Assembly: GCF_000026545.1 (NCBI RefSeq)
Contig: NC_011601.1
From: Escherichia coli O127:H6 str. E2348/69
GTDB lineage: Bacteria; Pseudomonadota; Gammaproteobacteria; Enterobacterales; Enterobacteriaceae
Strand: one strand, 5' to 3'
Length of the DNA stretch: 64,000 nt
Shown piece by piece: positions 15,258-30,443 of this stretch. The notes beneath the pieces were generated by a model. The model saw only the letters and a list, made by a program, of their open reading frames with translations, was not told where the DNA came from and did not search any database. Positions within the stretch are counted from its first letter, which is position 1. Each line of letters opens with the position of its first letter. A program made the position numbers and the translations under genes.

Positions 15258-15342
15258 GCCGAAGTGGCGAAATCGGTAGACGCAGTTGATTCAAAATCAA
15301 CCGTAGAAATACGTGCCGGTTCGAGTCCGGCCTTCGGCACCA
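15258..15342 (+). tRNA. leuX: tRNA-Leu (anticodon CAA)
   Basis: 85-nt gccgaagtggcgaaatcggtagacgcagttgattCAAaatcaaccgtagaaatacgtgccggttcgagtccggccttcggcacca: long variable arm, CAA anticodon, encoded CCA. Confidence 0.97.
15312..15342 (+). repeat. attL core: 31-bp direct repeat (3' end of leuX)
   Basis: cgtgccggttcgagtccggccttcggcacca is identical to 30373-30403. Confidence 0.9.
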
Positions 15343-15859
15343 AGTCACTAAATTTCTTACAATACAATAAGTTAGGAAATAAAATCTATCTCTTTTGCCT
15401 GTAAGAAATGCTCTGTTATGTCCCTTGAAAAAGCCGCTGTGGTTGATAGTGGTAATTGGGATGTTAACTCATAGCGGCGTGTAGTTCCAAGCGTCAAACA
15501 CGTACTGACTCAACTTGAAAGCTATGACGTAGCCACCGTCTCTAAACAATCCCAAAAACTTTTAGTGAAGCGCATTTTAGCCCGATGCCCCCGTTCTGTC
15601 GCCGTCGCGAGACGCCGCAGGGGATAAACAGGTTTATGGTGGTCACGGTACTTGCAGACCATATGCAAGCTCTGCCAGCGGTTCGGCCTCGCTCCCCTTG
15701 GGTACATGGTCATCCTGATAAGCCTCACTAACTGACATAACTGTGATGTAGTCGCCAGAGGCTCCGCTTGTTGTCTTACCACCAACGGGGCTTATGACTT
15801 TTATTGTGTCAGTAAACGGCATATTATCAGTGATAGTTCAAACAGTTAGTAGGTAGAAA

Positions 15860-16408
15860 ATGAAGACCAAAAGAAAGAGCTTTGATCAATTCTTATGGCA
15901 TGATATTGATTTTGAAGATGATGCTGCAAAACAGGAAGAATACCTTGAATCTGCATTGCCACTTATTGGCCAGATTGTTATGTATTTCAATGCGCTAGAG
16001 AAAGAATTAGATAAAGTCATTTATGAAGGATTCAGCGATCGGTCAGATCAGTTAGGAATAATAATTGTGCATAACATGAATTATGCAGCAAAAGTCGAGT
16101 TATTTAGACGTCACTCCGAATTATTCCATTTGGGTGTTGGGCAGCATGTTGATATGTTTGAAGGTCTTATAAAGGATCTCAAGGAATGTGGACGGTTACG
16201 AAACATTACTGTACATGCTGACTGGGATAGCACTGATGTCGAAGGATATACATATTTAGGCATCAAAATAACTAACAATGGAATATCTCAGGAATATATC
16301 CAGTTTGACCTGGGGTCGTTGGAAAGTATCCTTCAATTGATTTTCAGTACGAGATATAAGTTGAGTGATTATTCAGACTTAAGGGGAGATATACTGGCTT
16401 CACATTAG
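15860..16408 (+). CDS. HEPN-like protein (RNxxxH motif), candidate RNase toxin/defence effector
   Basis: 182-aa, predicted helical ORF in AT-rich cargo. The motif CGRLRNITVHADW fits the HEPN R-x4-6-H (RNxxxH) signature. Confidence 0.5.
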   Translation: MKTKRKSFDQFLWHDIDFEDDAAKQEEYLESALPLIGQIVMYFNALEKELDKVIYEGFSDRSDQLGIIIVHNMNYAAKVELFRRHSELFHLGVGQHVDMFEGLIKDLKECGRLRNITVHADWDSTDVEGYTYLGIKITNNGISQEYIQFDLGSLESILQLIFSTRYKLSDYSDLRGDILASH

Positions 16409-16477
16409 TGCCATTTTTTTACTAAATAGCTAACAAATACTATCGGTAAAAGACAACATCGCAATGGTAAAGCTGCC

Positions 16478-16948
16478 GTGAAGAAGACATTGATTGATTG
16501 GATCATAGAGACTGATAACTGGACAGGAATCGCAGCGTGGGCGGGTTTCGGTTTGTCAGTATTTCAGTTAGTAAAATCAAGAACATCGCTAAGACTTTAC
16601 CTCGGGTGTGATCAGCACGAGGACAGAATATACGTTTCGAACATAAGCGCACATGATGTAACGTTGAGTGTAGCCGGTGTCGTAACAGCCAGTGGACGCC
16701 TTAGAATGCTTTCCGACGAGTATTCGGATGAGAACATGATCACACCGATGTTACCAAGAAGGTTGAAAGCACGAGACGAAATGGTCTTGAACGTGCCCTT
16801 CATAAATAAGGCTCATCACAACAAAGTGCATCATCGTGGCGGGGTGTATATCAAAACATCTGACGGCAAGATGTTCAGTGATGTTTGTTGGATTAGACGC
16901 CAATGGTGGTGGTTACTGTCTGTAATACTGCGAGACACAAAGCGATAG
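16478..16948 (+). CDS. small membrane-anchored protein, unknown function
   Basis: 156-aa ORF with a GTG start, 70 nt after the HEPN-like gene. It has an N-terminal hydrophobic helix (WTGIAAWAGFGLSVFQLV) and a Trp-rich C-terminal segment. The RBS is weak. Confidence 0.4.
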   Translation: MKKTLIDWIIETDNWTGIAAWAGFGLSVFQLVKSRTSLRLYLGCDQHEDRIYVSNISAHDVTLSVAGVVTASGRLRMLSDEYSDENMITPMLPRRLKARDEMVLNVPFINKAHHNKVHHRGGVYIKTSDGKMFSDVCWIRRQWWWLLSVILRDTKR

Positions 16949-17159
16949 GACAAGCGAGTCGCAGCTCATATGAGTGCCAACTGACATACGGCTCAGTTGG
17001 AATACTAGGATCGCGACTACGTGTTGTCTGCGAAAAACTGGGACTCAATAGATGGGTGTAGATTTAATTGATACGATCCTGTACGCGAATATTTCTCAGC
17101 ATAAATATCATCCCAGCGTCGGATTATGGTATTCAGAATGTGTGTGATGGTCTCTATCT

Positions 17160-17852
17160 TTATTCAGACCTTTTCTTCTTATCTTCCCATTCTTTTAAAG
17201 TGCTCTGATATCTTTCTTCATTTATTCTTTTTTCCTCGGTTCTGTCGCTTGAGTTGTAATTATCTGTTTTAATTTTCTTGGCTCCTTGGGATATCGGCCT
17301 CCAGTCCTCTCTAATTTTTTTCACTTGCTCGGCTATTTGTGTCATTGGACTCCTTGCTCCTAAATAGCTAACCCCCTCGAAAGAAGCCATATCATAAGAA
17401 TATTCATTGAGTTCTCTTTCTGTAGATCCGGGCTGTTTTGACCAACTGACACTAATAGAATAAATTTGATCCTTAATTTGCTCATACTTGCAGAGATTGC
17501 TGTTGAGAGAGTGTCCGTTTTTTAATACGCTGACCTTGCTAAATGGTACGCCTCTATTTTTTCTATGTTCTGCATTAACGAGAGGGGGATCAAATTCGAC
17601 CGCTATATCATAGGCTGGTGCATTTCCAGTATTAGCGATATTAATGTCAAAATAAAAAGCAGCCCAAGAGTTTGGTTCAAGAGTCACAACAACATGTGGT
17701 TGAACTGATGCGTCAACCATCCTTTTCGTTTCGTTTGCTAATAGCCTTGTTACTCTCCACAAGAAAAACGTAGCAACTGCTGTTAGCAGTGCTGCAAAAG
17801 CAGAGATCATTGTGCTTATAGTATCTATATGCTGTGTGATGAATTCGATCAT
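17160..17852 (-). CDS. single-pass membrane protein, unknown function
   Basis: I place the start at MIEFITQH (17852) behind a GAGGGAGA RBS. It has a TM helix (ISAFAALLTAVATFFLW), a beta-rich middle and a Lys/Glu-rich tail; 230 aa. Confidence 0.55.
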   Translation of the reverse strand: MIEFITQHIDTISTMISAFAALLTAVATFFLWRVTRLLANETKRMVDASVQPHVVVTLEPNSWAAFYFDINIANTGNAPAYDIAVEFDPPLVNAEHRKNRGVPFSKVSVLKNGHSLNSNLCKYEQIKDQIYSISVSWSKQPGSTERELNEYSYDMASFEGVSYLGARSPMTQIAEQVKKIREDWRPISQGAKKIKTDNYNSSDRTEEKRINEERYQSTLKEWEDKKKRSE

Positions 17853-18178
17853 TCTTCTCCCTCGAAATATAGTGCTTATTGTTATCAAAGGTAAGATAGC
17901 TCCCGGCTTGAAAAATTGCACGCTTATGGTTGCCCCTCCCTCGACGGTTAAGGCTTCAACTTCCCCCGTGCGCCTCTCCCAGCCGAAGGCTGGGCGGGCT
18001 GTATATCGATTTGCCTTCCTCTGTGGCGTTTATGACCCTGTTTCGCGTTCTTACCGTGAGGCTGTGGGTTAGGGTTACTCTTCTCTTTAAACGCTAAATC
18101 ACTCCTGAATCTCCACTGTTAAAGCACTTTGCGTTGATGCTTGGCGCTTCTCTTGGCTGTCGTTATTGTTTTGGCTTT

Positions 18179-18298
18179 GGTGTCATCAATCGTTCGATTC
18201 TTGCTACCTGTCTGAGTGATTACTATCTGGTATCATCAATTTAGGGTTTGACTAAATGCCACCACCAATGCAATGATGCTACCGTTTTGTGATACCAG
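18179..18298. repeat. res-like repeat cluster upstream of the serine recombinase
   Basis: GGTGTCATCAAT (18179-18190) and GGTATCATCAAT (18229-18240) are direct repeats 50 bp apart. CTGGTATCA (18227-18235) and TGATACCAG (18290-18298) form a 9-bp inverted repeat. Confidence 0.4.
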
Positions 18299-18314
18299 AC
18301 GGGTGAGGTGAACC

Positions 18315-18884
18315 ATGAGGACTTTTATCTACTGCCGCGTTTCAACACGCGAGCAGGATACGCAGAATCAGGTGCTGGCTATTGAGCGTGCCGGGTATAA
18401 GGTGCCGGAGAGCAGGGTAATCAGCGAGGACATTTCCGGCAGCGTTCAGGCTATGCAGCGCCCTAAGTTCCGGGCGATGGTTGAGCACAAGCTGGAAGCG
18501 GGAGATCAGCTTGTCGTGCTGAAACTGGACAGGCTGGGGCGTGACAACATCGATGTGCAGCAGACCATCGACATGCTGTTAGAACGCGGCGTGAAGGTGG
18601 TGTCTCTTGACCTGCCAGCGCGTGATCTGACTTCATCTGAGGGCAAGCTAATCCGCCAGATGTTTGGAGCCTTTGCTGAGTTCGAGCGAAACCGTATCCG
18701 TGAGAGGACGCTGGACGGGCTGGAGAAGGCGAAAGCCAATGGCGTTAAGCTGGGACGCAAGGAAGCCACCGACACCACTCAAAAGGTGCAGGAGCTGCGG
18801 AGTGAGGGGCTGTCTCAATCGAAGGTAGCGAAGCATCTCGGCGTTAGCGTGAGCACCGTTAAACGTCACTGGAACAAGGGTTAG
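18315..18884 (+). CDS. serine recombinase (resolvase/invertase family)
   Basis: 189 aa with a catalytic N-terminus (YCRVSTREQ), LDRLGR, E-helix FAEFERNRIRERT and a C-terminal HTH (LGVSVSTVKRH). RBS GAGGTG. Confidence 0.9.
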   Translation: MRTFIYCRVSTREQDTQNQVLAIERAGYKVPESRVISEDISGSVQAMQRPKFRAMVEHKLEAGDQLVVLKLDRLGRDNIDVQQTIDMLLERGVKVVSLDLPARDLTSSEGKLIRQMFGAFAEFERNRIRERTLDGLEKAKANGVKLGRKEATDTTQKVQELRSEGLSQSKVAKHLGVSVSTVKRHWNKG

Positions 18885-19439
18885 GGGTGATGACCTACAA
18901 CCAAATGAGGTGCCAGCACTGGCCGTTACTGGGCTGTGGGAGATGGATGACCTACAGCTTTTGTATTTATTTCAGAGTGTTATGTTATGCGAAATCTCGT
19001 AATGCTATGATTTATAGTGTATTTTCGTATTACTTGCGGCTCTTGATGCGAAGAGATGGCGGGGCTTTAGCCGTGCCAGACGATGAGCATCAAGATCAGA
19101 TTGTGAATGTGATTCATCACTGAACAATTCGAGGGATGGGGCAGGGGAAGGGATCAAAGGCTGCGTTGTCCAATCACTAAGCTAGATTTGAAGCTGGTCA
19201 ACACGTTAGTAGTATCTTTAAAGTCGCATTTTAAATACATGTACAAAAAAGGGTTCTTCCCCTACATCCCCTTCTCCTAATCAGTGTTATCGCTTCACGC
19301 TCACCACTGGCTGCGCTTCTCGCTGTGCTCCAGCCCACTCGATCGCCTTTGGCTCATTCCCGGTCTTCGCCTGCTGTGATGCTCGGCCACTCTACGCAAC
19401 CGTGCTTGCCGTGGCATGCAACGCGGCGGGGATGTGTAG

Positions 19440-19750
19440 TGGAACGGTACTTTTTATCTATATTATTAATTTAATCAATCACATACTGTTATCGGTAGGT
19501 ATTCTTCAAAACATCTTCATTCATTTCTGTATCGTTCAATCATCTTTCTTGTTCGTTTCCTTTCAGGTCTTAGCCGTTGGTCATTGGTCTTACTGCCCGC
19601 TGTGCTACTGCCAGCTATGGCACGCCGTCACGGTCTACTGTCTGTCACCTGTCCTACTGCGTTCACTGTCTGCCGTCTGTCATCCTGTCGGATTCCATCC
19701 GTTGACGTTCCGCGCTCGCTTGTTTCGGCTGCGCCGCGCTCGCTCTGCGT
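19440..19750. other. candidate replication origin or other cis-acting region (AT-rich tract plus short repeats)
   Basis: An AT-rich tract at 19447-19560 is followed by at least 4 copies of (C)TACTG(C/T)(C/G) at 19591, 19606, 19636 and 19655, multiple CTGTC, and CCGCGCTCGCT twice (19710, 19734). It is non-coding and lies upstream of the helicase gene. Confidence 0.35.
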
Positions 19751-20149
19751 ATCTAGCGATACTATATCACTATAGACACTTTCATAATTATATAATGATT
19801 ACAGTAACTTATGTTTTCTGTTTTAAAAGCTACTAATAAGGAGATATAGAGCATTACTTACCCGCTTTTGACCGACAAAAATCGCGTTGTTAAGTATTGC
19901 CAGCCCAGGCTCAATAAGGCTTAGCGAGGTGGTGGCTAAAAAATGAGCTAATGAAGGTATCTACTAAGGAGAAAGAATAACTCCCGAAGCGCGACAAACT
20001 CTCCGATTTTGAAAGTGACTATTAAGGCAGATAAAGACACTGACACTGTTGCTGACATGAAAACTTCTAAAAGGGCAGAGAGTCTGCCGAACCCGTACCG
20101 CTGACCCAACCTGAGCTAATACCTACCCCTATTTTCTGGAGATTTCACC

Positions 20150-21994
20150 ATGCCAACAAACCTACGCCGCCTGCTTGCGCAGGCTGCCGACGCTGACCCG
20201 CTCAATACTGCGGACGCAGATGTACAGCAAATGATCGCTGACGGGATTGTTATTCGACGTTCCAAGATATGCCCTGTAAAGCGTAAACCCGTTAAGGCGG
20301 CATACAACACAAAGACCGAAGAGTTTTATTACAATGCAGATGGCTCCGCGATGACCTTGCGGGAGTGGCGAACGCTGCACGGTGTTCAACCGAAGAAACA
20401 AAAACAGCGCTCTGACACTGGGTTGCGGCAAGTCATCCAGCCCGGCGACGCGATTCACTGCCGACGCGCTGAGATTGAGCAATGGCTTAATAAGAAGCCC
20501 GCTCGTTATGTTGACCCGCTGCCGCCAGATTTTCCCGGTGTTCGCGTAGACGATGCCGCATTGAAACCGCGCGAGCACGCCGTGCCGGAAGCGACAACCG
20601 GACAGAATGCTTTTCTCAAAGCCTGCCGCGAGTTCCTGATTTGCGATGAGAAGACCATGCGCCGTATCAGTCGGGGCATGAACCAAATGGAAGCTATGCG
20701 CAACGCAGATTTCAAACGCTACGGAGACTCAGGGGAGTTTCGTCAATTGTGGTGTGGAGAGTCGAAGCCTACCGAAGATAGATTTAATAGTTCTAATCAT
20801 CATTGTGACCCGAACGGCTTGGCTGCTTCGCCGTCTGTGCCGCCACTGAATACTGCACCGTATGAGTTCCGCCCGCTGGCTCGCTGTGACCGAAACGCAC
20901 GCGTTAGCCTGCTGCCACCTGATGGGCTGGAGTGGAGGCCGGGGCAGTTGTCTGTTGCTGATGCGATCTTTTCCCGTGGCAGTGATGTGCTTGCCGTACT
21001 GCCGACCGGGTATGGCAAAAGCGCCGCCTTCACTTATCCATTGATTTATGAGTCCCGCGCTGGCATTGGCCTGTCTGTAATCGTGGTTCCTACTAATACC
21101 CTTAAGCGTCAGATTCTCCGCCAGTTGCGGGAGGCTGGCATTCACGCTGTGGCCTTTGGCGATAAGCTACCGAGGCACCGCAACGCACAACAACTGGCGG
21201 GACTAGCAGCCGGGGCGTTCCGGGTTGCTGTTGTTTCGCCTGAACATCTGGTTCCGTCGAGTCAGGTTCTCGCGGCGCTGATGGCTTATGGCGTTGATCG
21301 TTTTATTATCGATGAGGCACACACGGTCAAAGACTGGGATTTCCGCCCAGCTTACGACGCAATGCAGCACACACTACAGAATGCTTTTCCCTCGGCTCAG
21401 CGCTGCGTGTTTACGGCTACTCTACTACGAGAAAATGAGCGCGGTTTAATGGAGGCGCTGGGATGCCGTGGCGATTACGTTACATTCCGTGCTGATGTTG
21501 CTCGCGAGAATATCCAGTTGATTCCGGTCAGGCAGTGCCGCCAGCGATACCGCGCGGCTGTTGGTCTGGTCGAGGCTCTGCCAGAGGAAGAGAAGACGCT
21601 CATTCTAGTCAATGACCTTAAGACGTTGCGGGCGTACCTGAAACTCTTCGGCGACCGGGCGCGCCCATATCACTCGAAGACGATGCACCTGAGCAACGAG
21701 GAACGCCACGCAAACGCTGAGTGGTTTGCCTCTGCGCCGGGCGCGATTCTGATTGCTACTAAAGCCTTCGGGCTGGGTGCTGATGTTCCTGATATCCGTA
21801 ACGTTGTCGTGACATACGTTCCCGATGACTTGCCTGATCTCGTTCAGATGATTGGACGAGCCGGGCGCGATGGGGAACCTGCCCGCGCTTTTCTGCTGTG
21901 GTCATCGCTGGCGCTGGATGTTGCTCCTGATGAGCTTGCTTACTTCTACCGCCCTGAAAACTGTAACTGGCAGTACATCGCTAAATACCTCTGA
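20150..21994 (+). CDS. RecQ-family SF2 DNA helicase with a ~260-aa unknown N-terminal region
   Basis: 614 aa with motif I PTGYGKS, motif II DEAH, TAT, and the RecQ-type motif VI QMIGRAGRDG. RBS TGGAG. Confidence 0.85.
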   Translation: MPTNLRRLLAQAADADPLNTADADVQQMIADGIVIRRSKICPVKRKPVKAAYNTKTEEFYYNADGSAMTLREWRTLHGVQPKKQKQRSDTGLRQVIQPGDAIHCRRAEIEQWLNKKPARYVDPLPPDFPGVRVDDAALKPREHAVPEATTGQNAFLKACREFLICDEKTMRRISRGMNQMEAMRNADFKRYGDSGEFRQLWCGESKPTEDRFNSSNHHCDPNGLAASPSVPPLNTAPYEFRPLARCDRNARVSLLPPDGLEWRPGQLSVADAIFSRGSDVLAVLPTGYGKSAAFTYPLIYESRAGIGLSVIVVPTNTLKRQILRQLREAGIHAVAFGDKLPRHRNAQQLAGLAAGAFRVAVVSPEHLVPSSQVLAALMAYGVDRFIIDEAHTVKDWDFRPAYDAMQHTLQNAFPSAQRCVFTATLLRENERGLMEALGCRGDYVTFRADVARENIQLIPVRQCRQRYRAAVGLVEALPEEEKTLILVNDLKTLRAYLKLFGDRARPYHSKTMHLSNEERHANAEWFASAPGAILIATKAFGLGADVPDIRNVVVTYVPDDLPDLVQMIGRAGRDGEPARAFLLWSSLALDVAPDELAYFYRPENCNWQYIAKYL

Positions 21995-22031
21995 GTCGAA
22001 AGGCTCTCCCTGATTCTCTGGAGTTAATCAT

Positions 22032-22469
22032 ATGCCTGTTACCGAACATGCGCAGCGTCGTGCTGCGCGTGCGGATGCGCTCATCACCGCACAACTAGCC
22101 TTTGCCCTGAATGGGTACAACTGGGATGAACTGGCCGAACCTCATCGCAAGACCCTTAATCGTGAGGCCATCATTCGCGAGGTATCTACACCGCTGGAGC
22201 GATATTGCCTGCTGAATGATTGCGAGCCGTGGGAGTGTCTGGCCGCTGTACTGAACCGCATGAAAAGGCCGGATGGCTCGCGTCGCTGGAAAGCCGTCCG
22301 GTTGTCCGACCGGGTTTTCAATGGCCGGGTGCATCCAGTGCGCAAGACTCCTGATGAAGTTTACGCCGCCATTGCCCGCCGCTTGTTCCTGCCGAAGCCT
22401 GTGCATCAAGAAGTGATACAGCACATCCGTGCGCTTGGCTTGTTACCAGTTGGAGATAACCACCAATGA
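22032..22469 (+). CDS. hypothetical protein (island operon)
   Basis: 145 aa with RBS TGGAG 8 nt upstream; its stop overlaps the next start (ATGA). Confidence 0.6.
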   Translation: MPVTEHAQRRAARADALITAQLAFALNGYNWDELAEPHRKTLNREAIIREVSTPLERYCLLNDCEPWECLAAVLNRMKRPDGSRRWKAVRLSDRVFNGRVHPVRKTPDEVYAAIARRLFLPKPVHQEVIQHIRALGLLPVGDNHQ

Positions 22470-22675
22470 CGAAATCTGAATTTGAAAATGAAACATGGCG
22501 AATGAAGGGCTTGCTTCTTGGGGCGCTGATTCGCCGCCTTGAGGAAGATAAGGCTGGCGAGTCGCGCATGGTCGCAGCGGAGTTATCCAGTGCGGTCAAC
22601 TTCCTTAAGGCCAACGCCGTAGAAGCGCCGGACACATCATTCAACAACGTGTTCCCGGAGGATGACGAACAATGA
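22466..22675 (+). CDS. hypothetical protein (island operon)
   Basis: 69 aa with ATGA overlaps at both ends. Confidence 0.55.
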   Translation: MTKSEFENETWRMKGLLLGALIRRLEEDKAGESRMVAAELSSAVNFLKANAVEAPDTSFNNVFPEDDEQ

Positions 22676-22848
22676 CCCCTGAACAATTCAGACAATGGTT
22701 CGCCACGCTGCCACCGAACTATCAGAGCGCCGCACGCACCATGTACGACAACGCCCGCAAGTCGGGCATACATACCGCGTCAAGCCTTGCGCTGATTCAC
22801 ACGTTGGTTACTGACCAGATCAAATTTGATTCGGAGTTTAATTTATGA
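22672..22848 (+). CDS. hypothetical 58-aa protein (below the ORF-track cutoff)
   Basis: Hand translation gives MTPEQFRQWFATLPPNYQSAARTMYDNARKSGIHTASSLALIHTLVTDQIKFDSEFNL. ATGA overlaps with both neighbours fill the gap in the coupled chain. Confidence 0.5.
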   Translation: MTPEQFRQWFATLPPNYQSAARTMYDNARKSGIHTASSLALIHTLVTDQIKFDSEFNL

Positions 22849-23408
22849 CTTTGAGTATTACCGATATCCAGCGCATTAACGCGCTGGCTCATAAGCACCT
22901 AAAGAACAATGAAGAGATTGCAGCGGAGACAGGTCATACCCTGACCGATATTGACGCTGTAATCCGTGGCGTCTATGTCGATGACTTGGCCGAACATTGG
23001 AAAGACGATGCTGATATTACTCTGGCGGAGTACAACGCCATCCGCAGCCGCTATAAGCCCGGCAAGTTGCACCGCGATACAGAGTTTATGATTGCCCGCG
23101 ATATGCTGATTCGCCCTGAGACTGTGCTGGCTATCGCCCATTCCCGCTTTAGCAACGTCCACACGCACCCAGTGCCGAAAGCCGTCAAAGCAAAGCCGGA
23201 GAAAGCGAAAGTAGTGCGCAAGTTAGTGCTTACTGATTTAGATGAAATCCACAAGTTAGAGCGCTTCGGTTGGCCTGCTGCGGAGATCGCCGGGAAGCTG
23301 GGCGTCCCTGTTGAGGTCGTCGCGCATGTGCAACGCTGCCTGAGAAATCGTTGGTCGTACCCGGATACTCTGGAGTCTGTTAACTCCAAATTCAGCGAGG
23401 CTGAATGA
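22845..23408 (+). CDS. hypothetical protein with a probable C-terminal HTH
   Basis: 187 aa. The C-terminal segment WPAAEIAGKLGVPVEVVAHVQRCL looks HTH-like. Translationally coupled to its neighbours. Confidence 0.6.
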   Translation: MTLSITDIQRINALAHKHLKNNEEIAAETGHTLTDIDAVIRGVYVDDLAEHWKDDADITLAEYNAIRSRYKPGKLHRDTEFMIARDMLIRPETVLAIAHSRFSNVHTHPVPKAVKAKPEKAKVVRKLVLTDLDEIHKLERFGWPAAEIAGKLGVPVEVVAHVQRCLRNRWSYPDTLESVNSKFSEAE

Positions 23409-23641
23409 TGGCAGAGAACGAACCGCTGCACCCCGCCGTTAACCCTGATCTCTACGTGAACCTTGACGAACAACGCGAAGGATACGCTCCGATTGAATCA
23501 CAGGGTTGGGATGTGCTGACGCAGAACCTGACCGGGAAAGGTCGAACTGACCCCAGCCAAACACTTAACCAGAATCCGAAACAACGCCCGCACGGCTCCG
23601 TTGGTGAGCGTCGTTGGCTTCGTAAACGTGGATTACTTTAA
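23405..23641 (+). CDS. hypothetical protein
   Basis: 78 aa with an ATGA overlap with the upstream gene. Confidence 0.5.
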   Translation: MMAENEPLHPAVNPDLYVNLDEQREGYAPIESQGWDVLTQNLTGKGRTDPSQTLNQNPKQRPHGSVGERRWLRKRGLL

Positions 23642-23653
23642 CGAGGAATTACC

Positions 23654-23893
23654 ATGAGCAAAACTATCGTATTGCTGCCGCCCCGCAAGAATACAGACTG
23701 GGCTGCACAATTAAAGCTGATTTCTGAATCGCTTGAGGTGAGTCAGGCAGACCTCGCCCACGCCTATCAGGTTGATCGTCGGGATATGGGTAAAGCGTAT
23801 CACGGTGTGCGCAAACTGCCGGAGCGTTGTGTGCCTGTTCATATGCTGTTGTTAGCGCAGGTACACGACTTTAGAGCATTATCAGGAGAATAA
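23654..23893 (+). CDS. small HTH-like protein
   Basis: 79 aa, RBS GAGGA. The segment LEVSQADLAHAYQVDRRDMGKAYHG resembles an XRE-type HTH. Confidence 0.55.
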   Translation: MSKTIVLLPPRKNTDWAAQLKLISESLEVSQADLAHAYQVDRRDMGKAYHGVRKLPERCVPVHMLLLAQVHDFRALSGE

Positions 23894-23896
23894 TTT

Positions 23897-24577
23897 ATGT
23901 CTGACCAGAATGTTAATCCGTACCTTTCCGGTGCTGATGCTGCATCGCAGCAATCGCCATACATGGCTGCACCTGTTGGCGCTGACAATGGCGCATCCCG
24001 CTTTAGCTCTGTGCCTGCTGATGCTGATTTCCTCCGTACCCAGCCCGTTAACGGTAATGATGGCGGCCAATGGAATAATGGCAGTATCGCGAATCAGCAG
24101 GATCAGAACGCTGACAGCGCCGGGGCGCAGGTGGGCGATACTATCTCCCTGATGGATGGAACAGCTATTGAGTACACCGCCGAGCTGCAAGGATTGATGG
24201 GGCAGTTTCACCAGTCTGTCGAAAGCCAGCTAGGGCAGGGGACAGTTGACGCTATGTTGCAGTACGCTGGCACGCTCGACGCCGGGACGCAATCGACCCT
24301 TGAACGGATGGTTATGTCTGGCGACCCTGCGCAGATGCAGCGGGCGGTTCAGTATCTGCAAGAGCGTATGGCTGGCGGTTCCATTACCGGTTACGTCCCG
24401 AACGGCCAGACTGCCGCGCAACCTGTCGGAATGTCACATGCTGAGTTTATAGCAGCGTATGACCAGCTTTCGCAGTGGGCGCAGCAATCAGGGTATGGCC
24501 CCGGCCATCGCCAGTACGACGAACAATACCGTGCTCTGGTTGCGCAGCGCTCCGCTGGCAAACGTGCTGGTCGCTAA
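23897..24577 (+). CDS. Gln/Ala/Gly-rich protein in the scaffold position (candidate capsid assembly/scaffolding protein)
   Basis: 226 aa, RBS AGGAG. It has a low-complexity N-terminal half and a helical C-terminal half, and lies upstream of the capsid-like gene. Confidence 0.45.
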   Translation: MSDQNVNPYLSGADAASQQSPYMAAPVGADNGASRFSSVPADADFLRTQPVNGNDGGQWNNGSIANQQDQNADSAGAQVGDTISLMDGTAIEYTAELQGLMGQFHQSVESQLGQGTVDAMLQYAGTLDAGTQSTLERMVMSGDPAQMQRAVQYLQERMAGGSITGYVPNGQTAAQPVGMSHAEFIAAYDQLSQWAQQSGYGPGHRQYDEQYRALVAQRSAGKRAGR

Positions 24578-24716
24578 CGCCCAACGGTGGAATGCGCCCT
24601 GCAAGACTGAGTGCGCACCAACCCGGTACTACCACACCAATCTAAGCGCATGAGTCCCCGCAAGCCGCATTCTGCGCGGCATCTGAAAGCCTGTTTTTAA
24701 TTAACCGAGGTTCGTA

Positions 24717-25130
24717 ATGAGTACCTGTAATTTCCATGCCGTGGTGCGTGTCGCTGACGTGCGCCCGGATTTCGCCTTGCCGCTGGGTAGATGCGACCAC
24801 ATTTACCCTGAGCGTGTGCAGCACGTTTTCAATCCAGACGAAGCGGTTTATATCGTTGCCCGGTCTGCCACATCCGGCACCCGCACATCTGGCGTTAGCC
24901 GTGGGCTTTCCCCTGTGCTGCCGCCGAAGATGGCCGAGCGGATGCGCGAACGTGAACGGCACGAGAAAAACCGAGTCAGACCCCGCAAGGTGATCACTGA
25001 GGCGATACGCGCTGACATTATCGATCGCTCTGCAAAAGGTCAGAAGAATCGTTACATTGCAAGCAAGGTTGGTGTGTCTGAAACCTCTGTGCGGAAGGTG
25101 TTGAACATGGCGCGTATGAGTGCGCACTAG
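24717..25130 (+). CDS. DNA-binding protein with a C-terminal HTH (regulator or small-terminase-like)
   Basis: 137 aa, RBS GAGG. The C-terminus NRYIASKVGVSETSVRKVLN resembles a resolvase-type HTH. Confidence 0.55.
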   Translation: MSTCNFHAVVRVADVRPDFALPLGRCDHIYPERVQHVFNPDEAVYIVARSATSGTRTSGVSRGLSPVLPPKMAERMRERERHEKNRVRPRKVITEAIRADIIDRSAKGQKNRYIASKVGVSETSVRKVLNMARMSAH

Positions 25131-25349
25131 TGCAAGGTAATACGTTCACCTTACTTCACGCGCACTAACCCCTGAGAACCGTGCCAGCTCTGGCCTCAAA
25201 ACGCCCATTTCGGGGCACCTCATTCCTCTTAATCGATACCGTTCTGAATCCTGCCTCGGCGGGAGGATTACGCACGCCCGCGCCATGACGATGGCCGGGC
25301 CTATCTCGTCAGTGAATCCGCTGGCACAACCTACGTAGGAGTTTTACAT

Positions 25350-26345
25350 ATGGCCGATAACATTTACTCGCCTGACCAGTTCCGCCCACATTATGGCGGG
25401 GTGGAATCTGACAATGATATTCACATCGAGGCTTATGACCGGGATGTCCAGACCCGTTTAGAGTCCAAATCCGTATTTCTGGCCGAGGGGCTGTCTACAT
25501 ACAGGCCGCTGAAAGCCAGCAACCAATATCGTGTTGATCGCCTGAGTGGTGATCTGGAGGTGAAGGGCAGAACCGCAGGGCAATCGCTGGAGCCTACCGC
25601 TGTTAAGTCGGATAAGCTGATTATCTCTGTGGATACGCTGAGTTATATCCGCATCCCGATTGACTATCAGGATGACTGGACAGCACCCACCTTTCGCTCA
25701 GAGCTGAGCCGCAATATCGGTACTGCTCACGCTAAATTCTACGACGAAGCGCACACCATCCAGCTAATCAAAGCGACTGACTTTGTACCGCCGCCGACGT
25801 TGCAACCAACGTTTAACCCGCTGACGGATAATGTTGTCTCGCTCGACCTGACAGCGGGGAGCGAAGAGGACGCCGCAAACGAATTGTCTCACGCCGTAAA
25901 AGCGGCTGCTAATCGCTTTCTCACTGAGAAAGATATTCCGGTGGCCGAGCTGGTACTGCTTATCGACCCGGCTTGGTTCAGCATCCTGATGGAACATAAG
26001 AAGCTGATGAACATCCGTTACAGCCGGGATAGTGGCAACGATTACGCATGGCGTCGAGTTGGCTATGTCGCTTGGGTACGAGTCATTGAGCTGAACAGTT
26101 ACCCGCAGGGAGCCATTACCGCGCATGAACTGGGCGCTGATTATAATGTGACCGCAGGGGAAGCGCTGACACGGGCGACGCTGTTCCGGCCTGCGTCTGT
26201 ACTTGTGACAGTCGAAGCGCAGAGCGTCATCAATCGCCAGTGGGATGAGGAACGCGAAATGACAATGGTGATGGACTCATATCGCCTGTTCAATGTTGGG
26301 CTGCGCCGCCCGGACTGCGTTATCAATTTCCGACAAGCTGCATAA
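25350..26345 (+). CDS. major capsid protein, T7 gp10-like (HK97 fold, no delta domain)
   Basis: 331 aa, RBS AGGAG. Block-wise resemblance to my recollection of T7 gp10A: FRSELSRNIGTAHA / VRSEYTSQLGESLA, LLIDPAWFSIL / FYCDPDSYSAIL, and C-terminal FNVGLRRPDCVINF / AMGHGGLRPEAAGAVVF. Confidence 0.55.
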   Translation: MADNIYSPDQFRPHYGGVESDNDIHIEAYDRDVQTRLESKSVFLAEGLSTYRPLKASNQYRVDRLSGDLEVKGRTAGQSLEPTAVKSDKLIISVDTLSYIRIPIDYQDDWTAPTFRSELSRNIGTAHAKFYDEAHTIQLIKATDFVPPPTLQPTFNPLTDNVVSLDLTAGSEEDAANELSHAVKAAANRFLTEKDIPVAELVLLIDPAWFSILMEHKKLMNIRYSRDSGNDYAWRRVGYVAWVRVIELNSYPQGAITAHELGADYNVTAGEALTRATLFRPASVLVTVEAQSVINRQWDEEREMTMVMDSYRLFNVGLRRPDCVINFRQAA

Positions 26346-26361
26346 CTGGAGGGGCTGAGTC

Positions 26362-26871
26362 ATGGTTAATGATGCTTACGCCCCTGAGCTGTTGCGATCC
26401 CTTTTCCTGTATGACCCGGTGACAGGTCGCCTGCACCATAAAGCTAGCCGATGCCGGGTTACGGCTGGCTCCTATGCTGACTCCACCCGGCGAGCTGATG
26501 GCTATCGTCAAGTTGCCCTGCGACTGGATGGCAAGCAGTACCAGCTAAAAGCCCATCGCGTAGCGTGGATTCTTGCGCATGGTGCTATTCCCCACGGTAT
26601 GCAGATCGATCACATCAACGGTACCCGTGACGATAACCGCTTATGCAATCTGCGATTGGTTACGCAGCGGGAAAACGACCAGAACCGACGCAAGGCAAGG
26701 GGGTATAGCTGGAATAAGGGCTGTAGCAAATGGGAGGCTTACATACGCGTTGGTGGTGTACTCCGTCACCTTGGCTTATTCACATCCGAAGCGGCAGCTC
26801 GTGCTGTGTACCTGAAAGCTAAAGCCAGATACCACCCCTCAACGCCTGACGATTTATTGCAGGCTGCCTAA
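26362..26871 (+). CDS. HNH homing-type endonuclease with an AP2 DNA-binding domain
   Basis: 169 aa with HRVAWILAHGAIPHGMQIDHINGTRDDNRLCNLRLVT (HNH_3 type) followed by WNKGCSKWEAYIRVGGVLRHLGLFTSEAAA (AP2-like). Confidence 0.8.
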   Translation: MVNDAYAPELLRSLFLYDPVTGRLHHKASRCRVTAGSYADSTRRADGYRQVALRLDGKQYQLKAHRVAWILAHGAIPHGMQIDHINGTRDDNRLCNLRLVTQRENDQNRRKARGYSWNKGCSKWEAYIRVGGVLRHLGLFTSEAAARAVYLKAKARYHPSTPDDLLQAA

Positions 26872-26889
26872 CCCTCGGAGGTTCCATTA

Positions 26890-27315
26890 ATGGCTGATGA
26901 AAAGCCGATTAGGTCGCTGGCAGGTGATGACCCACGCCGCCAGCAGTACGCCGAACTGTTGGCGCAGGCTAGCCGCATGACTATTCCCCGGCTGCATCCG
27001 GGCGATGCTAACAGTGTGATGAGTCAGCTTGCAACGATGCTTGGCGCACCTGTCCCGATAGTCGGTGCTATGACTGAGCACGCCGCTGCATGGCGTGCCT
27101 GTCTGCTTGAGCAAGGACTTGGCGAGCTTCTGGATGGCTTGAGTAAACAGGTGCTGACCATCTTCTTTCTGCTCTGCTGGAGAGACAGCGCCTTGCGATT
27201 GGCTGGTAAGCAAAAGAAACGGCTTACAGCCGCCAGCGAGGGTTTGACCATTGAGCAATACCGGGCAATGCACCCGGCTTACAGAGAGGATAAAGAACAT
27301 GATAACCACGATTAA
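26890..27315 (+). CDS. hypothetical protein
   Basis: 141 aa, RBS GGAGG 8 nt upstream. Confidence 0.55.
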   Translation: MADEKPIRSLAGDDPRRQQYAELLAQASRMTIPRLHPGDANSVMSQLATMLGAPVPIVGAMTEHAAAWRACLLEQGLGELLDGLSKQVLTIFFLLCWRDSALRLAGKQKKRLTAASEGLTIEQYRAMHPAYREDKEHDNHD

Positions 27316-27598
27316 ATTAAGGTGGCGGTACATCGAGACGCCGCCAATGACTGGCGCACTCGCTGACCTGAAACAGTGGGTAATGAATGCCGTAGAGCCT
27401 GAGCTTGAGGCTGAATTTCGTAAGCTGCTGGGGCAGATGCGTCGCAATGGTATCAGTGATGGGCGCGTAAATGCGGTGGCTGATGAGCTTTATGCTCTGG
27501 TATGCCAACGCCAGCGCGAAGAATACGAAGCCTGCAAGCGGGCTGCCTCTGACAATGGAGACTTTGAATCATGGTTACACGGACAGACCAGCTACTAA
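27299..27598 (+). CDS. hypothetical protein
   Basis: I prefer the start at MITTIKLRW (27299), which has RBS AGAGAGGA upstream, over the track start at 27251. 99 aa. Confidence 0.5.
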   Translation: MITTIKLRWRYIETPPMTGALADLKQWVMNAVEPELEAEFRKLLGQMRRNGISDGRVNAVADELYALVCQRQREEYEACKRAASDNGDFESWLHGQTSY

Positions 27599-27996
27599 GA
27601 AAAGCTATGAGGGGCTATCTGGAACACCTTGGCAACATGCCGCTGGCGGAACGGATTACAAATGCTGCTGTATTCGAAGATGTGTATCGCTTTTTGTTGA
27701 ATGGTTCCGGGCGGCTGGAGCTGCGCCGCGCTGACGTGGCTGCCGTCCGTGTCTTCCTTTGGAACTATCAATACCGCCGCTGTGCTGTGACAGGTAAGCC
27801 GCTGCGCCTTGCGTCTGCCGTTCTGGATCACTGCCACCGAACCGGGCGCGTGCGTGCTGTGGTGCATCGTTCTGCTAACGCTGCTGAGGGAGGCCGCTAC
27901 GTTGGGCGGACGTGTGGTGTTAGCGTTACGAATCTAAGGGCTATGATTGGCAGCTATCGCAAGCAATACACTGGTATTGGCATGTTATATCCATAA
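27571..27996 (+). CDS. endonuclease VII-family (HNH-like) nuclease
   Basis: 141 aa. CAVTGKPL...VLDHCHRTGRVRAVVHRSANAAEG resembles the Endonuclease_7 motif (C-x2-C ... DH-x-H-x-TG-x-VRG..C..CN..G). Confidence 0.6.
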   Translation: MVTRTDQLLRKAMRGYLEHLGNMPLAERITNAAVFEDVYRFLLNGSGRLELRRADVAAVRVFLWNYQYRRCAVTGKPLRLASAVLDHCHRTGRVRAVVHRSANAAEGGRYVGRTCGVSVTNLRAMIGSYRKQYTGIGMLYP

Positions 27997-28037
27997 CTGC
28001 GGGGTAATAAACCCCGCCGAAATAGTAGCGTAGCCAC

Positions 28038-28940
28038 TCAAACAGGAATGTTGTAGTAATGACAAATTGCATTAGTTAGTAGAGCTGGTGCAGCAGACGC
28101 TGCAATATTTAGCGTCCCCGCATATGCTTTACCAATCATATTTACAACCCACTTCCCAAGGCTATCACTGAAATTGTCCGGGGTAGTTGGGGCGGGTGAT
28201 TCTTGTATAGCTTGATGAAGGCTCTTAATATCTTCATCATTAGCGCCCCAATCCTTGAGCTGCTTTTCAAGCGAGTTGAAGTCTCCAGCGTTGACAGTAT
28301 TATTTTGTGAAATGTCCCCGTTACCAGAGCCAATAACGCCAGCATTGTTTACGTTGCCATGAATGTTGGTCACGTTATGGACAGTCATTGGCGCTACCTC
28401 TTTTTCTCTTAATGAAAACTGTAACCCTTCGCCTAAAATACCCTTTGACTCTAAGTCTAAAGACCAGTCGAGGATCTTATTCCTAACGGTAGTAATTACA
28501 TGTTCTAGTACACCAGCGCTTATAACCCATACCATCTCAGTCTTTTGTCCGATACTTTGAGCTAATGTATCAGCCATCCAATCCGGGAGAGGTAAAAAAG
28601 GGTTTTCTCCTTTATTGCTCATCTTTTTTATAGATGATATTGATTCTGTAATGTGAAACGTTGATACCATTGCATTTAATTCCGCGTCGTTGAAGTTGAC
28701 CACAAGCGGAACCCAGCTCTGATGTTGGGGACTATATGCTTTTAACTGCGATTGACCTTTCCTGTATTCAGGAACCGTATCAAAGCTGGGATAGCCATTT
28801 AATTCGAGCTGTATCCACTCGGTCAAATCGCTGAGGCCGAGCTTCACTGCAATCATTTTGGCCTTCATGAGTACAGATAAAATGTCGGAGTCGGGATCGC
28901 ACGCTAGTGCTTGAAGTTCAAGAACTGGTGAGTTAGCCAT
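28038..28940 (-). CDS. AbiTii-like abortive-infection family protein
   Basis: 300 aa. The N-terminus LELQALACDPDSDILSVLMKAKMIAVKLGLSDLTEWIQLELNGY matches the AbiTii N-terminal pattern as I recall it. It lies adjacent to the integrase. Confidence 0.55.
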   Translation of the reverse strand: MANSPVLELQALACDPDSDILSVLMKAKMIAVKLGLSDLTEWIQLELNGYPSFDTVPEYRKGQSQLKAYSPQHQSWVPLVVNFNDAELNAMVSTFHITESISSIKKMSNKGENPFLPLPDWMADTLAQSIGQKTEMVWVISAGVLEHVITTVRNKILDWSLDLESKGILGEGLQFSLREKEVAPMTVHNVTNIHGNVNNAGVIGSGNGDISQNNTVNAGDFNSLEKQLKDWGANDEDIKSLHQAIQESPAPTTPDNFSDSLGKWVVNMIGKAYAGTLNIAASAAPALLTNAICHYYNIPV

Positions 28941-29027
28941 ATCAAGACCTTAGTATTGTTTTGATAAGGTATCTTACCCGCATCGAACCATGCAGTCTAA
29001 GGTTCGCAGGCCAAACTCACCCATGAG

Positions 29028-30239
29028 TTAGATGTTTATTCCTTCATGCTGGATGAGTTCGACATACTTACCGATCTCTATAGGGGAAGCTGCATTTTTC
29101 GAGTAAGTTTTGAAGCTCTCTGTACTCCCGCGCTCATGACCGACGAGCAGGGCAATACGATCTTCTGGCACTTGAGCACGGTCGAGCTGTTGCACAAAAG
29201 CATGGCGGAGTGAGTGAAACACTTTTCTCTCTGCGGCAGGCTCGCCAAGAGCTTTACGCTTTGCTCGCGTGAATTGCTGCGTATGCCACGTTGAGCGCTT
29301 CCCATCGGCCCGGTCTGTTATTGATGCGTGATAGAACAGAAAACCGCTATGTGTGGTCTTGAGCAATGACTTCACGAGAGGGATTATCTTGCTGTGTACA
29401 GGGACGATTCGCGCCGCGCTCTTAGTCTTCCCCTCGGTGATCTCAAAGCACAATATACCCTCGATAGTTTTAATACTGCTTTCACGTAGCGTACATATCT
29501 CATTGATCCGCATACCGCTGTATGCACCAATAGCCGTTACCGCCTTCATCTCGTCATCAAGCAAGGCATAGACCTTTGCCAGCTCTCCCGGTGCGAAGAC
29601 TTCATAGCTGACCTTGCTGCTTTTTGCTTCGAGCGCATGACCGCGCCAAGGATTGTCCTGTGGTGCATCGTGATAGCGATTGCGTGCCAGATCCCATATC
29701 TGCGCCAGTGCGCTTATATAGTTTTGGATAGTTTGGGGCGCTCGCTCAGTTTTGAGCTTATCTAACCAGCCTGTAACTATGGTTCGGTTAATATCCCGCA
29801 ACTGAACATCTTTCTTTTTCAAGTGGGTTAACAGCACCTCTACGGCTTTGTTGGTCTTGGATAACGTGGTTAGCTTTCGCTTCTCGCTGTATTGAAGCAG
29901 GTACAAATCACGCATTTTTAGCAAGGAAGGGCAAGCCTGAATCGATGCACCAAACGATGCGGGGGCTTCCTTGGCGTACACACTGACACGGCGTAGCTCA
30001 TCAATGATTTGGTCTACAGATGAGCCGCCTTGTGGCTTTAGCAGATTCCGTAAGCGAGTCCATTCCAGAGCAATAGCATCTCGAAACAATCGCGCTTGGC
30101 GTATGTCTCGTGTTCCTGTGCTTTTCATAAAGTAGCGCTTCCCTTGGAACAGGTGGCGCATATAGCTGGGAATAGCTATCCGCACGAGGTAATTCCCGCA
30201 GGGATCTAAAACTAGATAACGATCTCTCTTGAAACTCAT
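29028..30239 (-). CDS. tyrosine-type site-specific integrase
   Basis: 403 aa with a catalytic set consistent with R (SGMRINEI), HSLRH, LVGH and a C-terminal Y (FKTYSKN). Its start lies 133 nt from attR. Confidence 0.9.
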   Translation of the reverse strand: MSFKRDRYLVLDPCGNYLVRIAIPSYMRHLFQGKRYFMKSTGTRDIRQARLFRDAIALEWTRLRNLLKPQGGSSVDQIIDELRRVSVYAKEAPASFGASIQACPSLLKMRDLYLLQYSEKRKLTTLSKTNKAVEVLLTHLKKKDVQLRDINRTIVTGWLDKLKTERAPQTIQNYISALAQIWDLARNRYHDAPQDNPWRGHALEAKSSKVSYEVFAPGELAKVYALLDDEMKAVTAIGAYSGMRINEICTLRESSIKTIEGILCFEITEGKTKSAARIVPVHSKIIPLVKSLLKTTHSGFLFYHASITDRADGKRSTWHTQQFTRAKRKALGEPAAERKVFHSLRHAFVQQLDRAQVPEDRIALLVGHERGSTESFKTYSKNAASPIEIGKYVELIQHEGINI

Positions 30240-30372
30240 ACAAACCCCGGTTATGTTGTCGGGGCTTTTTCATGGCTAAACAGTCTGTGAAATGTGCCGG
30301 GGTCATGAGCTTTAGTCTAGCTAGTTCAACAAGTTAACGATGATTGTTGAAGCAAGCTAAGTCGCTATAACC

Positions 30373-30403
30373 CGTGCCGGTTCGAGTCCGGCCTTCGGCA
30401 CCA
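30373..30403 (+). repeat. attR core: displaced copy of the leuX 3' end
   Basis: Exact 31-bp copy of 15312-15342, with no upstream tRNA body. Confidence 0.9.
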
Positions 30404-30419
30404 CATCGTATGCAAATCG

Positions 30420-30443
30420 AGTCGCTCAAGGGCGGCTTTTTTT
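30420..30443 (+). terminator. probable native leuX rho-independent terminator, now at attR
   Basis: Hairpin agtcgc (30420-30425) / gcggct (30432-30437, one G-U pair) followed by T7, 17 nt after the repeated CCA end. Confidence 0.65.

Follow-up and report, generated by a model that had tools for sequence, protein, structure and literature searches.

The 64,000-nucleotide stretch of the Escherichia coli O127:H6 str. E2348/69 chromosome analysed here (contig NC_011601.1 of assembly GCF_000026545.1; hereafter the window) was found to contain a 15,061-bp element integrated at the 3' end of leuX, an intact gene for tRNA-Leu(CAA) (Table 1). Over 15.7 kb the DNA is 100% identical to three assemblies of this strain. 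The element is bounded by a 31-mer, CGTGCCGGTTCGAGTCCGGCCTTCGGCACCA, which occurs exactly twice in the whole window, once as the last 31 nt of leuX (attL) and once as a displaced copy of that end (attR). No third copy was detected in the window at up to three mismatches, none of 100 shuffles gave a match, and a shorter 25-mer probe returned the same two copies only. An earlier note made from the letters of this DNA had described the exact repeats, a hairpin with a run of seven T residues behind the distal copy only, and an integrase gene starting 133 nt inside attR and reading inward. All three were confirmed, the hairpin as a stem at 30419-30438 with TTTTTTT at 30437-30443; on the plus strand there is no terminator-like site between 15343 and 18131. 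The mosaic composition that it reported was also found, with a G+C content of 36–47% at 15.5–17.5 kb, 51–59% at 20–28 kb and 43% at 28–29 kb.

The insertion was verified by reconstructing the empty site, for which position 15342 was joined to 30404 with 400 bp on each side and 5426 complete E. coli genomes were searched. The full 800 bp was matched in 204 of these genomes; the 40 matches listed each consist of one unbroken piece at 98.5–99.6% identity, and the annotated order is ahr, tRNA-Leu, HsdR. This full-length match defines the insertion as 15,061 bp with base precision and identifies the hairpin as the native leuX terminator. The proposal that the terminator had been pushed away by the insertion is thus supported by the empty site, and also by the presence of the same terminator after attR in Trabulsiella and Enterobacter. 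The other possibility raised in the earlier note, that the repeat belongs to a longer and unrelated duplication, is ruled out, as homology to the empty site ends exactly at the repeat. With an intact tRNA gene, a displaced 3' copy, an internal integrase and an empty site, the element belongs to the tRNA-integrated islands with a tyrosine recombinase.

Related elements form a family. The 8-kb core is present as a single colinear copy in 59 of the 5426 complete E. coli genomes (83–95% identity) and also occurs in Trabulsiella, Kluyvera, Kosakonia and several Enterobacter species, while protein clusters of the family extend to Klebsiella, Citrobacter, Cronobacter and Phytobacter. Element sizes range from 12.9 to 15.2 kb. 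In nine of the 11 family loci examined the element lies beside tRNA-Leu(CAA), and in loci with both ends, including those of other genera, the same 31-bp repeat bounds 13–15 kb; a Kosakonia locus (L012) begins inside the element, so that only attR is visible, and one member, from Enterobacter bugandensis, is integrated elsewhere and its integrase is a different one (38% identity). The identity of attR in relatives always extends through ...CCGGCCTTCG, with the last 6–8 nt decayed: in loci L003, L004 and L105 the decaying 3' tail consists of three to four tandem copies of TTCGCACC, and in L005 and L007 it has a 1-nt deletion. This decay places the crossover 5' of the ...CCGGCCTTCG end point, and indicates that selection acts on the attL copy only, which completes the tRNA. 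In Enterobacter chuandaensis (L007, 15024-15348) a second left-arm block, 68–71% identical to window positions 15343-15587, follows directly after attR, and two related elements appear from the sequence to sit in tandem at leuX.

The gene order is shared across the family. From leuX and attL it runs through a conserved non-coding block, a first cargo hotspot, a serine recombinase gene and a non-coding region to a helicase operon (with short scaffold, major capsid protein, small terminase fragment, HNH and endonuclease VII genes), a second hotspot, the integrase gene and attR. Throughout the family, and in the sibling islands described below, the integrase gene is tRNA-distal and reads inward. 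This agrees with the earlier note, which had remarked that the layout is the opposite of the P4/KpLE2 type; in the leuX island of E. coli Nissle the integrase lies directly 3' of leuX. Among 50,697 phage records no phage integrase was more than 28% identical to that of the element, which is therefore not P4-like. As there is no terminator 3' of attL, transcription leaving leuX would enter the conserved block and hotspot 1, not the integrase gene.

The head-related genes in the core provide the link to phages. The major capsid protein (MCP) shares 54–56% identity over 97–98% of its length with the MCPs of Bonnellvirus (Escherichia phages Lidtsur, J8-65 and relatives), a genus of Autographiviridae with a phiKMV-like gene order, and 41–50% identity with those of hundreds of other phiKMV-like phages. 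A search of the PDB gave full-length matches to phage capsid proteins (E 8.6e-78). Family hidden Markov models (HMMs) and alignments were built from 13 elements and compared with Lidtsur gene families and with the open reading frames (ORFs) found in 79 phage loci. The scaffold model matched 56 phage ORFs located immediately upstream of MCP genes (E about 2e-4). The element protein has 226 aa, compared with 411 aa for Lidtsur gp40, and matches only the C-terminal ~100 residues of the latter (hhalign 93.8%, residues 310-410). Its homologues are all of 224–231 aa in 65 clusters, one of which is named 'Scaffolding protein' by UniRef, and an AlphaFold2 (AF2) model (mean pLDDT about 55, too low for a fold search) has a disordered N-terminus, a helical core and a C-terminal helix-turn-helix (HTH).

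A 69-aa protein resembles the N-terminal half of the T7/phiKMV-type small terminase (TerS), as indicated by a Pfam PF11123 match below the cut-off (3e-4), by a family HMM match to Lidtsur TerS (3.6e-4) and by hhalign (93–94%, E 1e-7), in which the motif AAELS..FLK.N is aligned. The endonuclease VII (EndoVII) homologue matches Lidtsur gp30 (hhalign 97.6%), and in 45 phage loci a homologue of the HNH endonuclease adjoins the MCP gene, in the manner of free-standing homing endonucleases. By these comparisons, five genes of the element have homologues in phiKMV-like phages. The host range of the nearest phages (E. coli, Enterobacter, Kosakonia, Cronobacter and Pantoea) overlaps that of the element, and the nearest phage genomes are 41–43 kb in size, the element being about one third of that. 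The slot at 24578-25349, between scaffold and MCP, is swappable: in E2348/69 it is occupied by the gene for a 137-aa HTH_23 protein, which in some relatives is replaced by an unrelated gene of 115 aa. The slot may determine helper specificity.

It is proposed that the element is a phage satellite of phiKMV-like podophages of the Autographiviridae (Bonnellvirus and relatives), a reading of its gene content for which the probability is put at roughly 0.55. It is based on the presence of genes for integration, a replication helicase, regulators and head assembly or packaging, together with the lack of everything that an element would require to form particles unaided. The generic description of a satellite fits, as an MCP, a short scaffold and a TerS fragment are present and the portal, large terminase (TerL), tail and lysis genes are without a match; scans of the ORFs against Pfam, PHROGs and NCBIfam detected no portal, TerL, protease, tail, polymerase or lysis family. 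Besides the helicase (614 aa) and the integrase (403 aa), the core ORFs do not exceed 331 aa. Defence cargo in two hotspots, as in P4 and phage-inducible chromosomal island (PICI) satellites, gives further support.

Selection on the core bears on whether a phage once resident here is simply being lost. Every core gene is under purifying selection, with ratios of non-synonymous to synonymous substitution (dN/dS) of 0.10–0.33 overall (0.107 for the MCP, 0.12 for the scaffold-like, 0.10 for the TerS-like and 0.098 for the integrase gene). A deep sub-family, represented by an Enterobacter hormaechei locus (L107, Logan SRR35738729), has an MCP 58% identical to that of E2348/69 and 51% to that of Lidtsur, and a scaffold-like protein which is 44% identical and still 232 aa long. 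It keeps the order resolvase, helicase, scaffold, MCP and distal DUF6538 integrase and has in addition a pRha-domain protein and a further HNH gene; no tRNA or leuX repeat was found within the 21-kb locus. The order kept in this sub-family indicates that the capsid module is an old, maintained part of an integrated element, and neither a recent capture nor part of a decaying prophage. A decaying remnant of a temperate T7-like prophage might be suggested by the five genes with phiKMV-like homologues, and temperate Autographiviridae exist. However, all ORFs are intact and constrained, the compact gene set is found again in several genera as well as in the sub-family, no pseudogene traces of RNA polymerase, DNA polymerase, portal, tail or TerL are present, and the scaffold is uniformly half-length in 65 clusters, so that such an origin is considered very improbable.

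Read as a satellite, the element would have a life cycle of the following kind. In the resting state the island would remain in leuX with its defence cargo expressed, and hotspot 1 might be transcribed from the leuX promoter by read-through. When a suitable podophage, probably a virulent one, infects the cell, the element would be excised via the integrase and then replicated with its own helicase and enzymes of the helper. Assembly of the MCP and half-length scaffold encoded by the element would then take place on the portal and core of the helper, the capsids probably being smaller; a T=4 shell would have a capacity of 0.43 x 42 kb, or about 18 kb, compatible with genomes of 13–15 kb. The TerS-like protein may divert the helper large terminase to satellite DNA, or block it, and the HNH and EndoVII proteins may process concatemers or damage the helper genome. 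Particles would leave with helper tails by helper-driven lysis.

Several observations weigh against this interpretation. Neither the metagenome nor the IMG/VR contig collections contain the predicted attP junction, and the element is in none of the phage records searched. IMG/VR has two contigs of the family, the sizes and identifiers of which point to proviral calls. Both ends of a 15,229-bp contig (L105, Logan SRR31716236) lie inside the 31-bp repeat; the simplest explanation is an assembly break at the repeat, not a circle, and terminal overlap was seen in none of 49 contigs or loci of 10–17 kb. When the element was compared with Lidtsur by blastn with 7-nt words, similarity was confined to the MCP gene, so that no pac site or terminal repeat is recognisable; nor was a shared promoter motif found, where a search for repeats between the Lidtsur genes gave one early-region motif which was not searched for in the element. 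Even the most similar phage MCP known has an identity of only 56%, and for TerS and scaffold the homology is distant (HMMER E about 1e-4; hhalign 93–94%). Profile scans of the element ORFs gave no recognisable excisionase, primase or AlpA, and the role of the serine recombinase is left unexplained by the satellite model. Element-sized Logan contigs (~14–15 kb) could in general be mistaken for circular or packaged genomes.

The two hotspots vary from member to member. In relatives, hotspot 1 holds DUF3800, AbiJ, Rap1a or insertion sequence (IS) elements, or is reduced to as little as 164 bp, and hotspot 2 holds TIR, a cytosine methyltransferase with an NmeDI-like nuclease, or other genes. The AbiTii protein of hotspot 2 is 100% identical between E2348/69 and Kluyvera ascorbata ATCC 33433 (L009), the rest of the element having ~92% nucleotide identity, which points to recent exchange of cargo between genera. 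A site-specific cassette system of the serine recombinase was considered for hotspot 1 and rejected, since the flanks are conserved but the left boundary shifts and no core site is repeated.

This cargo (AbiTii here; TIR, DUF3800, AbiJ and the methyltransferase/nuclease pair in relatives) would also suit an integrative defence island, spread by ordinary transduction or recombination and never packaged. The capsid, scaffold and TerS-like genes would in that case be domesticated dominant-negative decoys which poison the capsid assembly or packaging of infecting podophages. A TerS homologue without its C-terminal half is what an inhibitor might look like, and the attP junction and phage record searches gave no packaged form in the collections covered. 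On the other hand, the full-length MCP is under strong purifying selection and is accompanied by a scaffold to match, by an integrase with intact att sites and by a helicase with a putative origin, and the size is held at 13–15 kb across genera; taken together, these features suit a transferable replicon better than a fixed defence locus. Interference and transfer also go together in known satellites. A defence island of this kind is thus thought unlikely, and the satellite interpretation is preferred.

The features of the element are given in Table 1. Its genes are annotated mostly as hypothetical proteins in RefSeq. The serine recombinase is conserved in position and has at least two divergent forms in the family (about 97% versus 26–35% identity to the E2348/69 copy). 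Downstream of it, the 1.27-kb non-coding region contains CTGTC-rich direct repeats at 19637-19687 (units 19637-19659 and 19665-19687) and, 3' of these, an AT-rich palindromic stretch at 19760-19830 (core 19772-19805), and on these features is a candidate origin or regulatory region. The helicase, presumed to be a replication protein, has an N-terminal extension of ~260 aa and scores 140 bits, under the cut-off, with NCBIfam recQ_fam. It matches the PADLOC 'DpdF' sub-model PDLC02858 over its whole length (E 1.9e-277). Membership of the Dpd (7-deazaguanine DNA modification) system was nevertheless rejected, as the helicase scores 124 bits against an NCBIfam DpdF cut-off of 550, and a PADLOC scan of ten element proteins found no other Dpd gene (DpdA, DpdB, DpdC etc.); PDLC02858 may itself derive from the leuX island family and give misleading DpdF hits.

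Four small conserved ORFs of the operon are presumed to be regulators. Pfam and PHROGs scans recognised no AlpA or Xis among them, and a PDB profile search of the 187-aa product of one (22845-23408) gave a weak HTH match only. The 141-aa protein encoded at 26890-27315 had no match in the PDB profile search, and its AF2 model is all-helical with a mean pLDDT of about 55, too low for a fold search. An ORF on the minus strand of the left block was considered as an excisionase gene, but is probably not coding at a dN/dS of 0.69. Immediately outside attR, from 30628 to about 45900, the window contains a defence cluster made up of type I restriction-modification (hsdRSM), DUF4942, McrBC and HNH genes and a gene for a phosphorothioate-dependent restriction endonuclease. 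Next come nanMC and the fim operon, and no further leuX fragment is present in the window.

Table 1. Features and modules of the leuX element of E. coli E2348/69 (window positions).
Feature	Position	Strand	Evidence or remark
leuX, tRNA-Leu(CAA), intact	15258-15342	+	ARAGORN; Rfam tRNA 59.4 bits
attL repeat copy (last 31 nt of leuX)	15312-15342	+	exact repeat
Conserved non-coding left-arm block (module: conserved left block)	15343-15806	+	cross-genus conservation
ORF in left block	15522-15785	-	dN/dS 0.69
Structured-RNA-like element, ~190 nt, leuX sense	15619-15809	+	covariance model R1 234.5 bits
Cargo hotspot 1, AT-rich (module: variable hotspot 1)	15807-17901		family comparison
Hotspot 1 ORF	15860-16408	+	no function assigned
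Hotspot 1 ORF	16478-16948	+	no function assigned
Hotspot 1 ORF	17160-17852	-	phrog_11802
Conserved junction right of hotspot 1 (module: conserved junction, from 17902)	17902-18159		first 44 bp kept in every family member
Small serine recombinase, resolvase/invertase type	18315-18884	+	Pfam PF00239 8.3e-37, HTH_7; phrog_125
Non-coding region, 1.27 kb, upstream of helicase operon	18885-20149		CTGTC-rich repeats; AT-rich stretch
Module: core, two parts split by swappable slot	20127-24577 and 25349-27917
SF2 RecQ-like DEAD/DEAH helicase, 614 aa	20150-21994	+	Pfam DEAD/Helicase_C
Conserved 145-aa protein	22032-22469	+	dN/dS 0.145
69-aa TerS N-terminal-half homologue	22466-22675	+	Pfam PF11123; family HMM; hhalign
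Four small conserved ORFs	22672-23893	+	22672-22848; 22845-23408 (C-terminal HTH); 23408-23641; 23654-23893
Short scaffold homologue, 226 aa	23897-24577	+	family HMM; hhalign
137-aa HTH_23 protein, swappable slot	24717-25130	+	Pfam; weak phrog_836 (phage late activator) match
Major capsid protein, HK97 fold, T7/phiKMV type	25350-26345	+	phrog_267 3.3e-64
HNH_3 endonuclease, homing-endonuclease type	26362-26871	+	Pfam PF13392 1.8e-18; phrog_99
Two conserved proteins	26890-27598	+	26890-27315 and 27299-27598; no function assigned
Endonuclease VII homologue	27571-27996	+	Pfam PF02945; phrog_423 1.4e-15; hhalign
Module: hotspot 2	27918-29088
Cargo hotspot 2: AbiTii, abortive-infection family	28038-28940	-	Pfam PF18864 4.3e-44; PADLOC AbiTii
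Tyrosine integrase, 403 aa, DUF6538 + SAM_5 + catalytic domain	29028-30239	-	Pfam PF00589 1.3e-16
Module: integrase and attR	29089-30403
attR repeat copy (displaced leuX 3' end)	30373-30403	+	exact repeat
Native leuX intrinsic terminator, displaced 15,061 bp	30419-30443	+	stem and T run; empty site

The left block is 96–98% identical across genera, although the neighbouring genes have dS values of 0.3–0.9, and was found in 624 of the 5426 E. coli genomes. One of these cases was examined, that of E. coli Nissle (L100, 20001-20464), where the block persists as a relic in a decayed leuX island, followed by an AbiJ gene and lying 7.3 kb from leuX behind another island with a tRNA-proximal integrase; the arrangement of this relic is taken as evidence of successive insertions and decay at leuX. 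Within the block, a segment resembling a structured RNA ends ~50 nt before the first cargo gene. Other small islands have homologues of this segment (72–83% identity) ~280 nt 3' of tRNA-Gly, and a further homologue is plasmid-borne. An invariant 21-mer is present in at least 120 metagenome contigs.

A covariance model of the segment (R1) recovered 97 copies. In the R1 alignment, which was fitted to the model so that pairing counts lean towards it, 94% of cells are paired compared with 31–46% in slid controls, and 12 pairs are altered on both sides, with 163 compensatory cells against 23–44 in slid controls and none of 500 shuffles reaching the observed value. G-U pairs are frequent in the helices, on one strand. 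In an independent MAFFT alignment, UUCG and GNRA types alternate in the loops and a hairpin is inserted in three sequences; no Rfam family matches the block. A same-strand tRNA lies 203–316 nt upstream of 55 of 87 copies, namely Gly(CCC) in 27, Leu(CAA) in 25, Ala(GGC) in two and Thr(CGT) in one; these copies lie at the termini of small islands. The block is a candidate leader or processing element for cargo transcribed from the tRNA promoter, or else part of the integration module.

The same block could be read as the mimic of an origin of transfer (oriT) in an integrative mobilizable element moved by conjugation, the capsid genes being incidental cargo. It contains hairpins as well as YATCCTG, which resembles the MOB_P nick consensus, and the invariant motif GGTACAYGGTYATCCTGATAA, which adjoins inverted repeats, is widespread and has one copy on a plasmid. 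However, the motif lies inside covarying helices, and the many one-strand G-U pairs and the alternation of UUCG and GNRA loops indicate an RNA rather than a DNA nick site. Mobilisation of this type is also made quite improbable by the capsid module, which is conserved and under selection, and by the profile scans of the ORFs (Pfam, PHROGs and NCBIfam), in which no relaxase, coupling protein or mobilisation family was matched.

Sibling islands share parts of the satellite proposed here. In E. coli U1 (L104, NZ_CP041359.1, about 281.5–293.8 kb), a 12.3-kb element with a 20-bp repeat lies in tRNA-Gly(CCC). It has the same RNA-like block, and likewise a serine recombinase and a distal integrase (37% identical to that of E2348/69). 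Its MCP is of another type (phrog_29), and it also encodes a lambda-O-like initiator as well as tape-measure-like and tail-fibre-like proteins. This element may represent another type of satellite built on the same backbone. Twelve of 48 long metagenome loci with the RNA-like block carry one of the two MCP types, which suggests a wider group sharing a backbone and swapping helper-specific modules. A broader and more tentative proposal, regarded as possible though rather doubtful, is that the element is a branch of an unrecognised superfamily of tRNA-integrating satellites. Its members would have a distal DUF6538 integrase, a serine recombinase, swapped helper-specific capsid modules and an RNA of ~190 nt, located 200–320 nt downstream of Leu-CAA, Gly-CCC, Ala-GGC or Thr-CGT tRNA genes and perhaps made from the host tRNA promoter. 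The present branch would form small capsids of its own on portals supplied by virulent phiKMV/T7-like podophages and would be the first satellite of the Autographiviridae, located in a standard laboratory strain.

Satellite P4 integrates in leuX and has P2 as its helper. P4-like satellites are likewise small (about 11–15 kb), occupy the 3' end of the same tRNA gene and carry defence hotspots, and parasitism of the helper virion, probably with smaller capsids, is a proposed likeness. They differ in that no Sid, Psu, Delta, alpha primase(-helicase) or AlpA/Vis was matched here in the Pfam, PHROGs and NCBIfam scans, in that the integrase of the element is tRNA-distal and of another clade (DUF6538 N-terminus), and in that the element has its own MCP and scaffold and a presumed podophage helper, not a P2-like myophage. 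The classical PICI arrangement, an int-alpA-pri/rep module with TerS, Ppi or Rpp, was not found, the replication gene here being an SF2 helicase. Capsid-forming PICIs (cf-PICIs) are also chromosomal islands of about 15 kb with their own HK97-fold capsid protein and an HNH nuclease. They encode a full head and packaging set (portal, protease, connectors, TerS and TerL) and borrow only tails, whereas portal, TerL, protease, connectors and int-alpA-pri are without a match here and the MCP is of the T7/phiKMV type.

In the SaPI islands, Ccm of SaPIbov5 is a homologue of the helper MCP and CpmB of SaPI1 is a short scaffold with a coat-binding C-terminus, both of which redirect assembly to small capsids. 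By analogy, the MCP and half-length scaffold of the element suggest that the same logic of capsid redirection may apply, although host, phage type and gene families differ and both proteins are supplied here. PLE of Vibrio cholerae, the helper of which is ICP1, and the PICMI islands of Vibrionaceae resemble the element in that the presumed helper is virulent and the island is also a defence element; PLE is further reported to manipulate the helper packaging motor. In neither is similarity to the element in sequence or architecture apparent. PLE, from a different host, shares no annotation with the element and uses an external scaffold, not an MCP. PICMIs are minimal islands with int, AlpA, Fis and Prim-Pol and are reported to be devoid of capsid-remodelling genes; capsid genes are present here and neither Prim-Pol nor AlpA was matched in the scans.

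The KpLE2, Nissle and ARMADA/Druantia islands share with the element sequential tRNA-Leu insertions beside ahr, direct repeats and defence cargo, but have AlpA-like excisionases, HUH Rep proteins and tRNA-proximal integrases. The ARMADA/Druantia islands were described in a preprint in which the word 'capsid' is never used (bioRxiv 10.1101/2025.09.15.676423). No published description of the present family was found in full-text literature searches, including searches with protein accessions, the E2348/69 genome paper, which possibly lists the island, being outside the search. The element is most likely an undescribed kind of phage satellite. The defining gene sets of P4-like satellites, PICIs, cf-PICIs and PICMIs are lacking. 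SatelliteFinder screens for four satellite families and, as the defining gene set of none of these is present, would probably miss the island.

The proposal is open to direct testing, since Bonnellvirus phages isolated on K-12, which are candidate helpers, are available in culture and the element resides in enteropathogenic E. coli E2348/69. The RNA-like block, found beside four different tRNA targets, constitutes a separate lead. If the satellite interpretation is true, E. coli would possess a satellite family aimed at T7/phiKMV-like virulent podophages, a phage group for which none was reported in the literature searched, and its mode of hijacking would be intermediate between known types, combining its own coat and a half-length scaffold with a borrowed portal, motor and tail. 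It would then have a bearing on phage therapy with Autographiviridae, on the traffic of defence genes at the leuX hotspot and on annotation.

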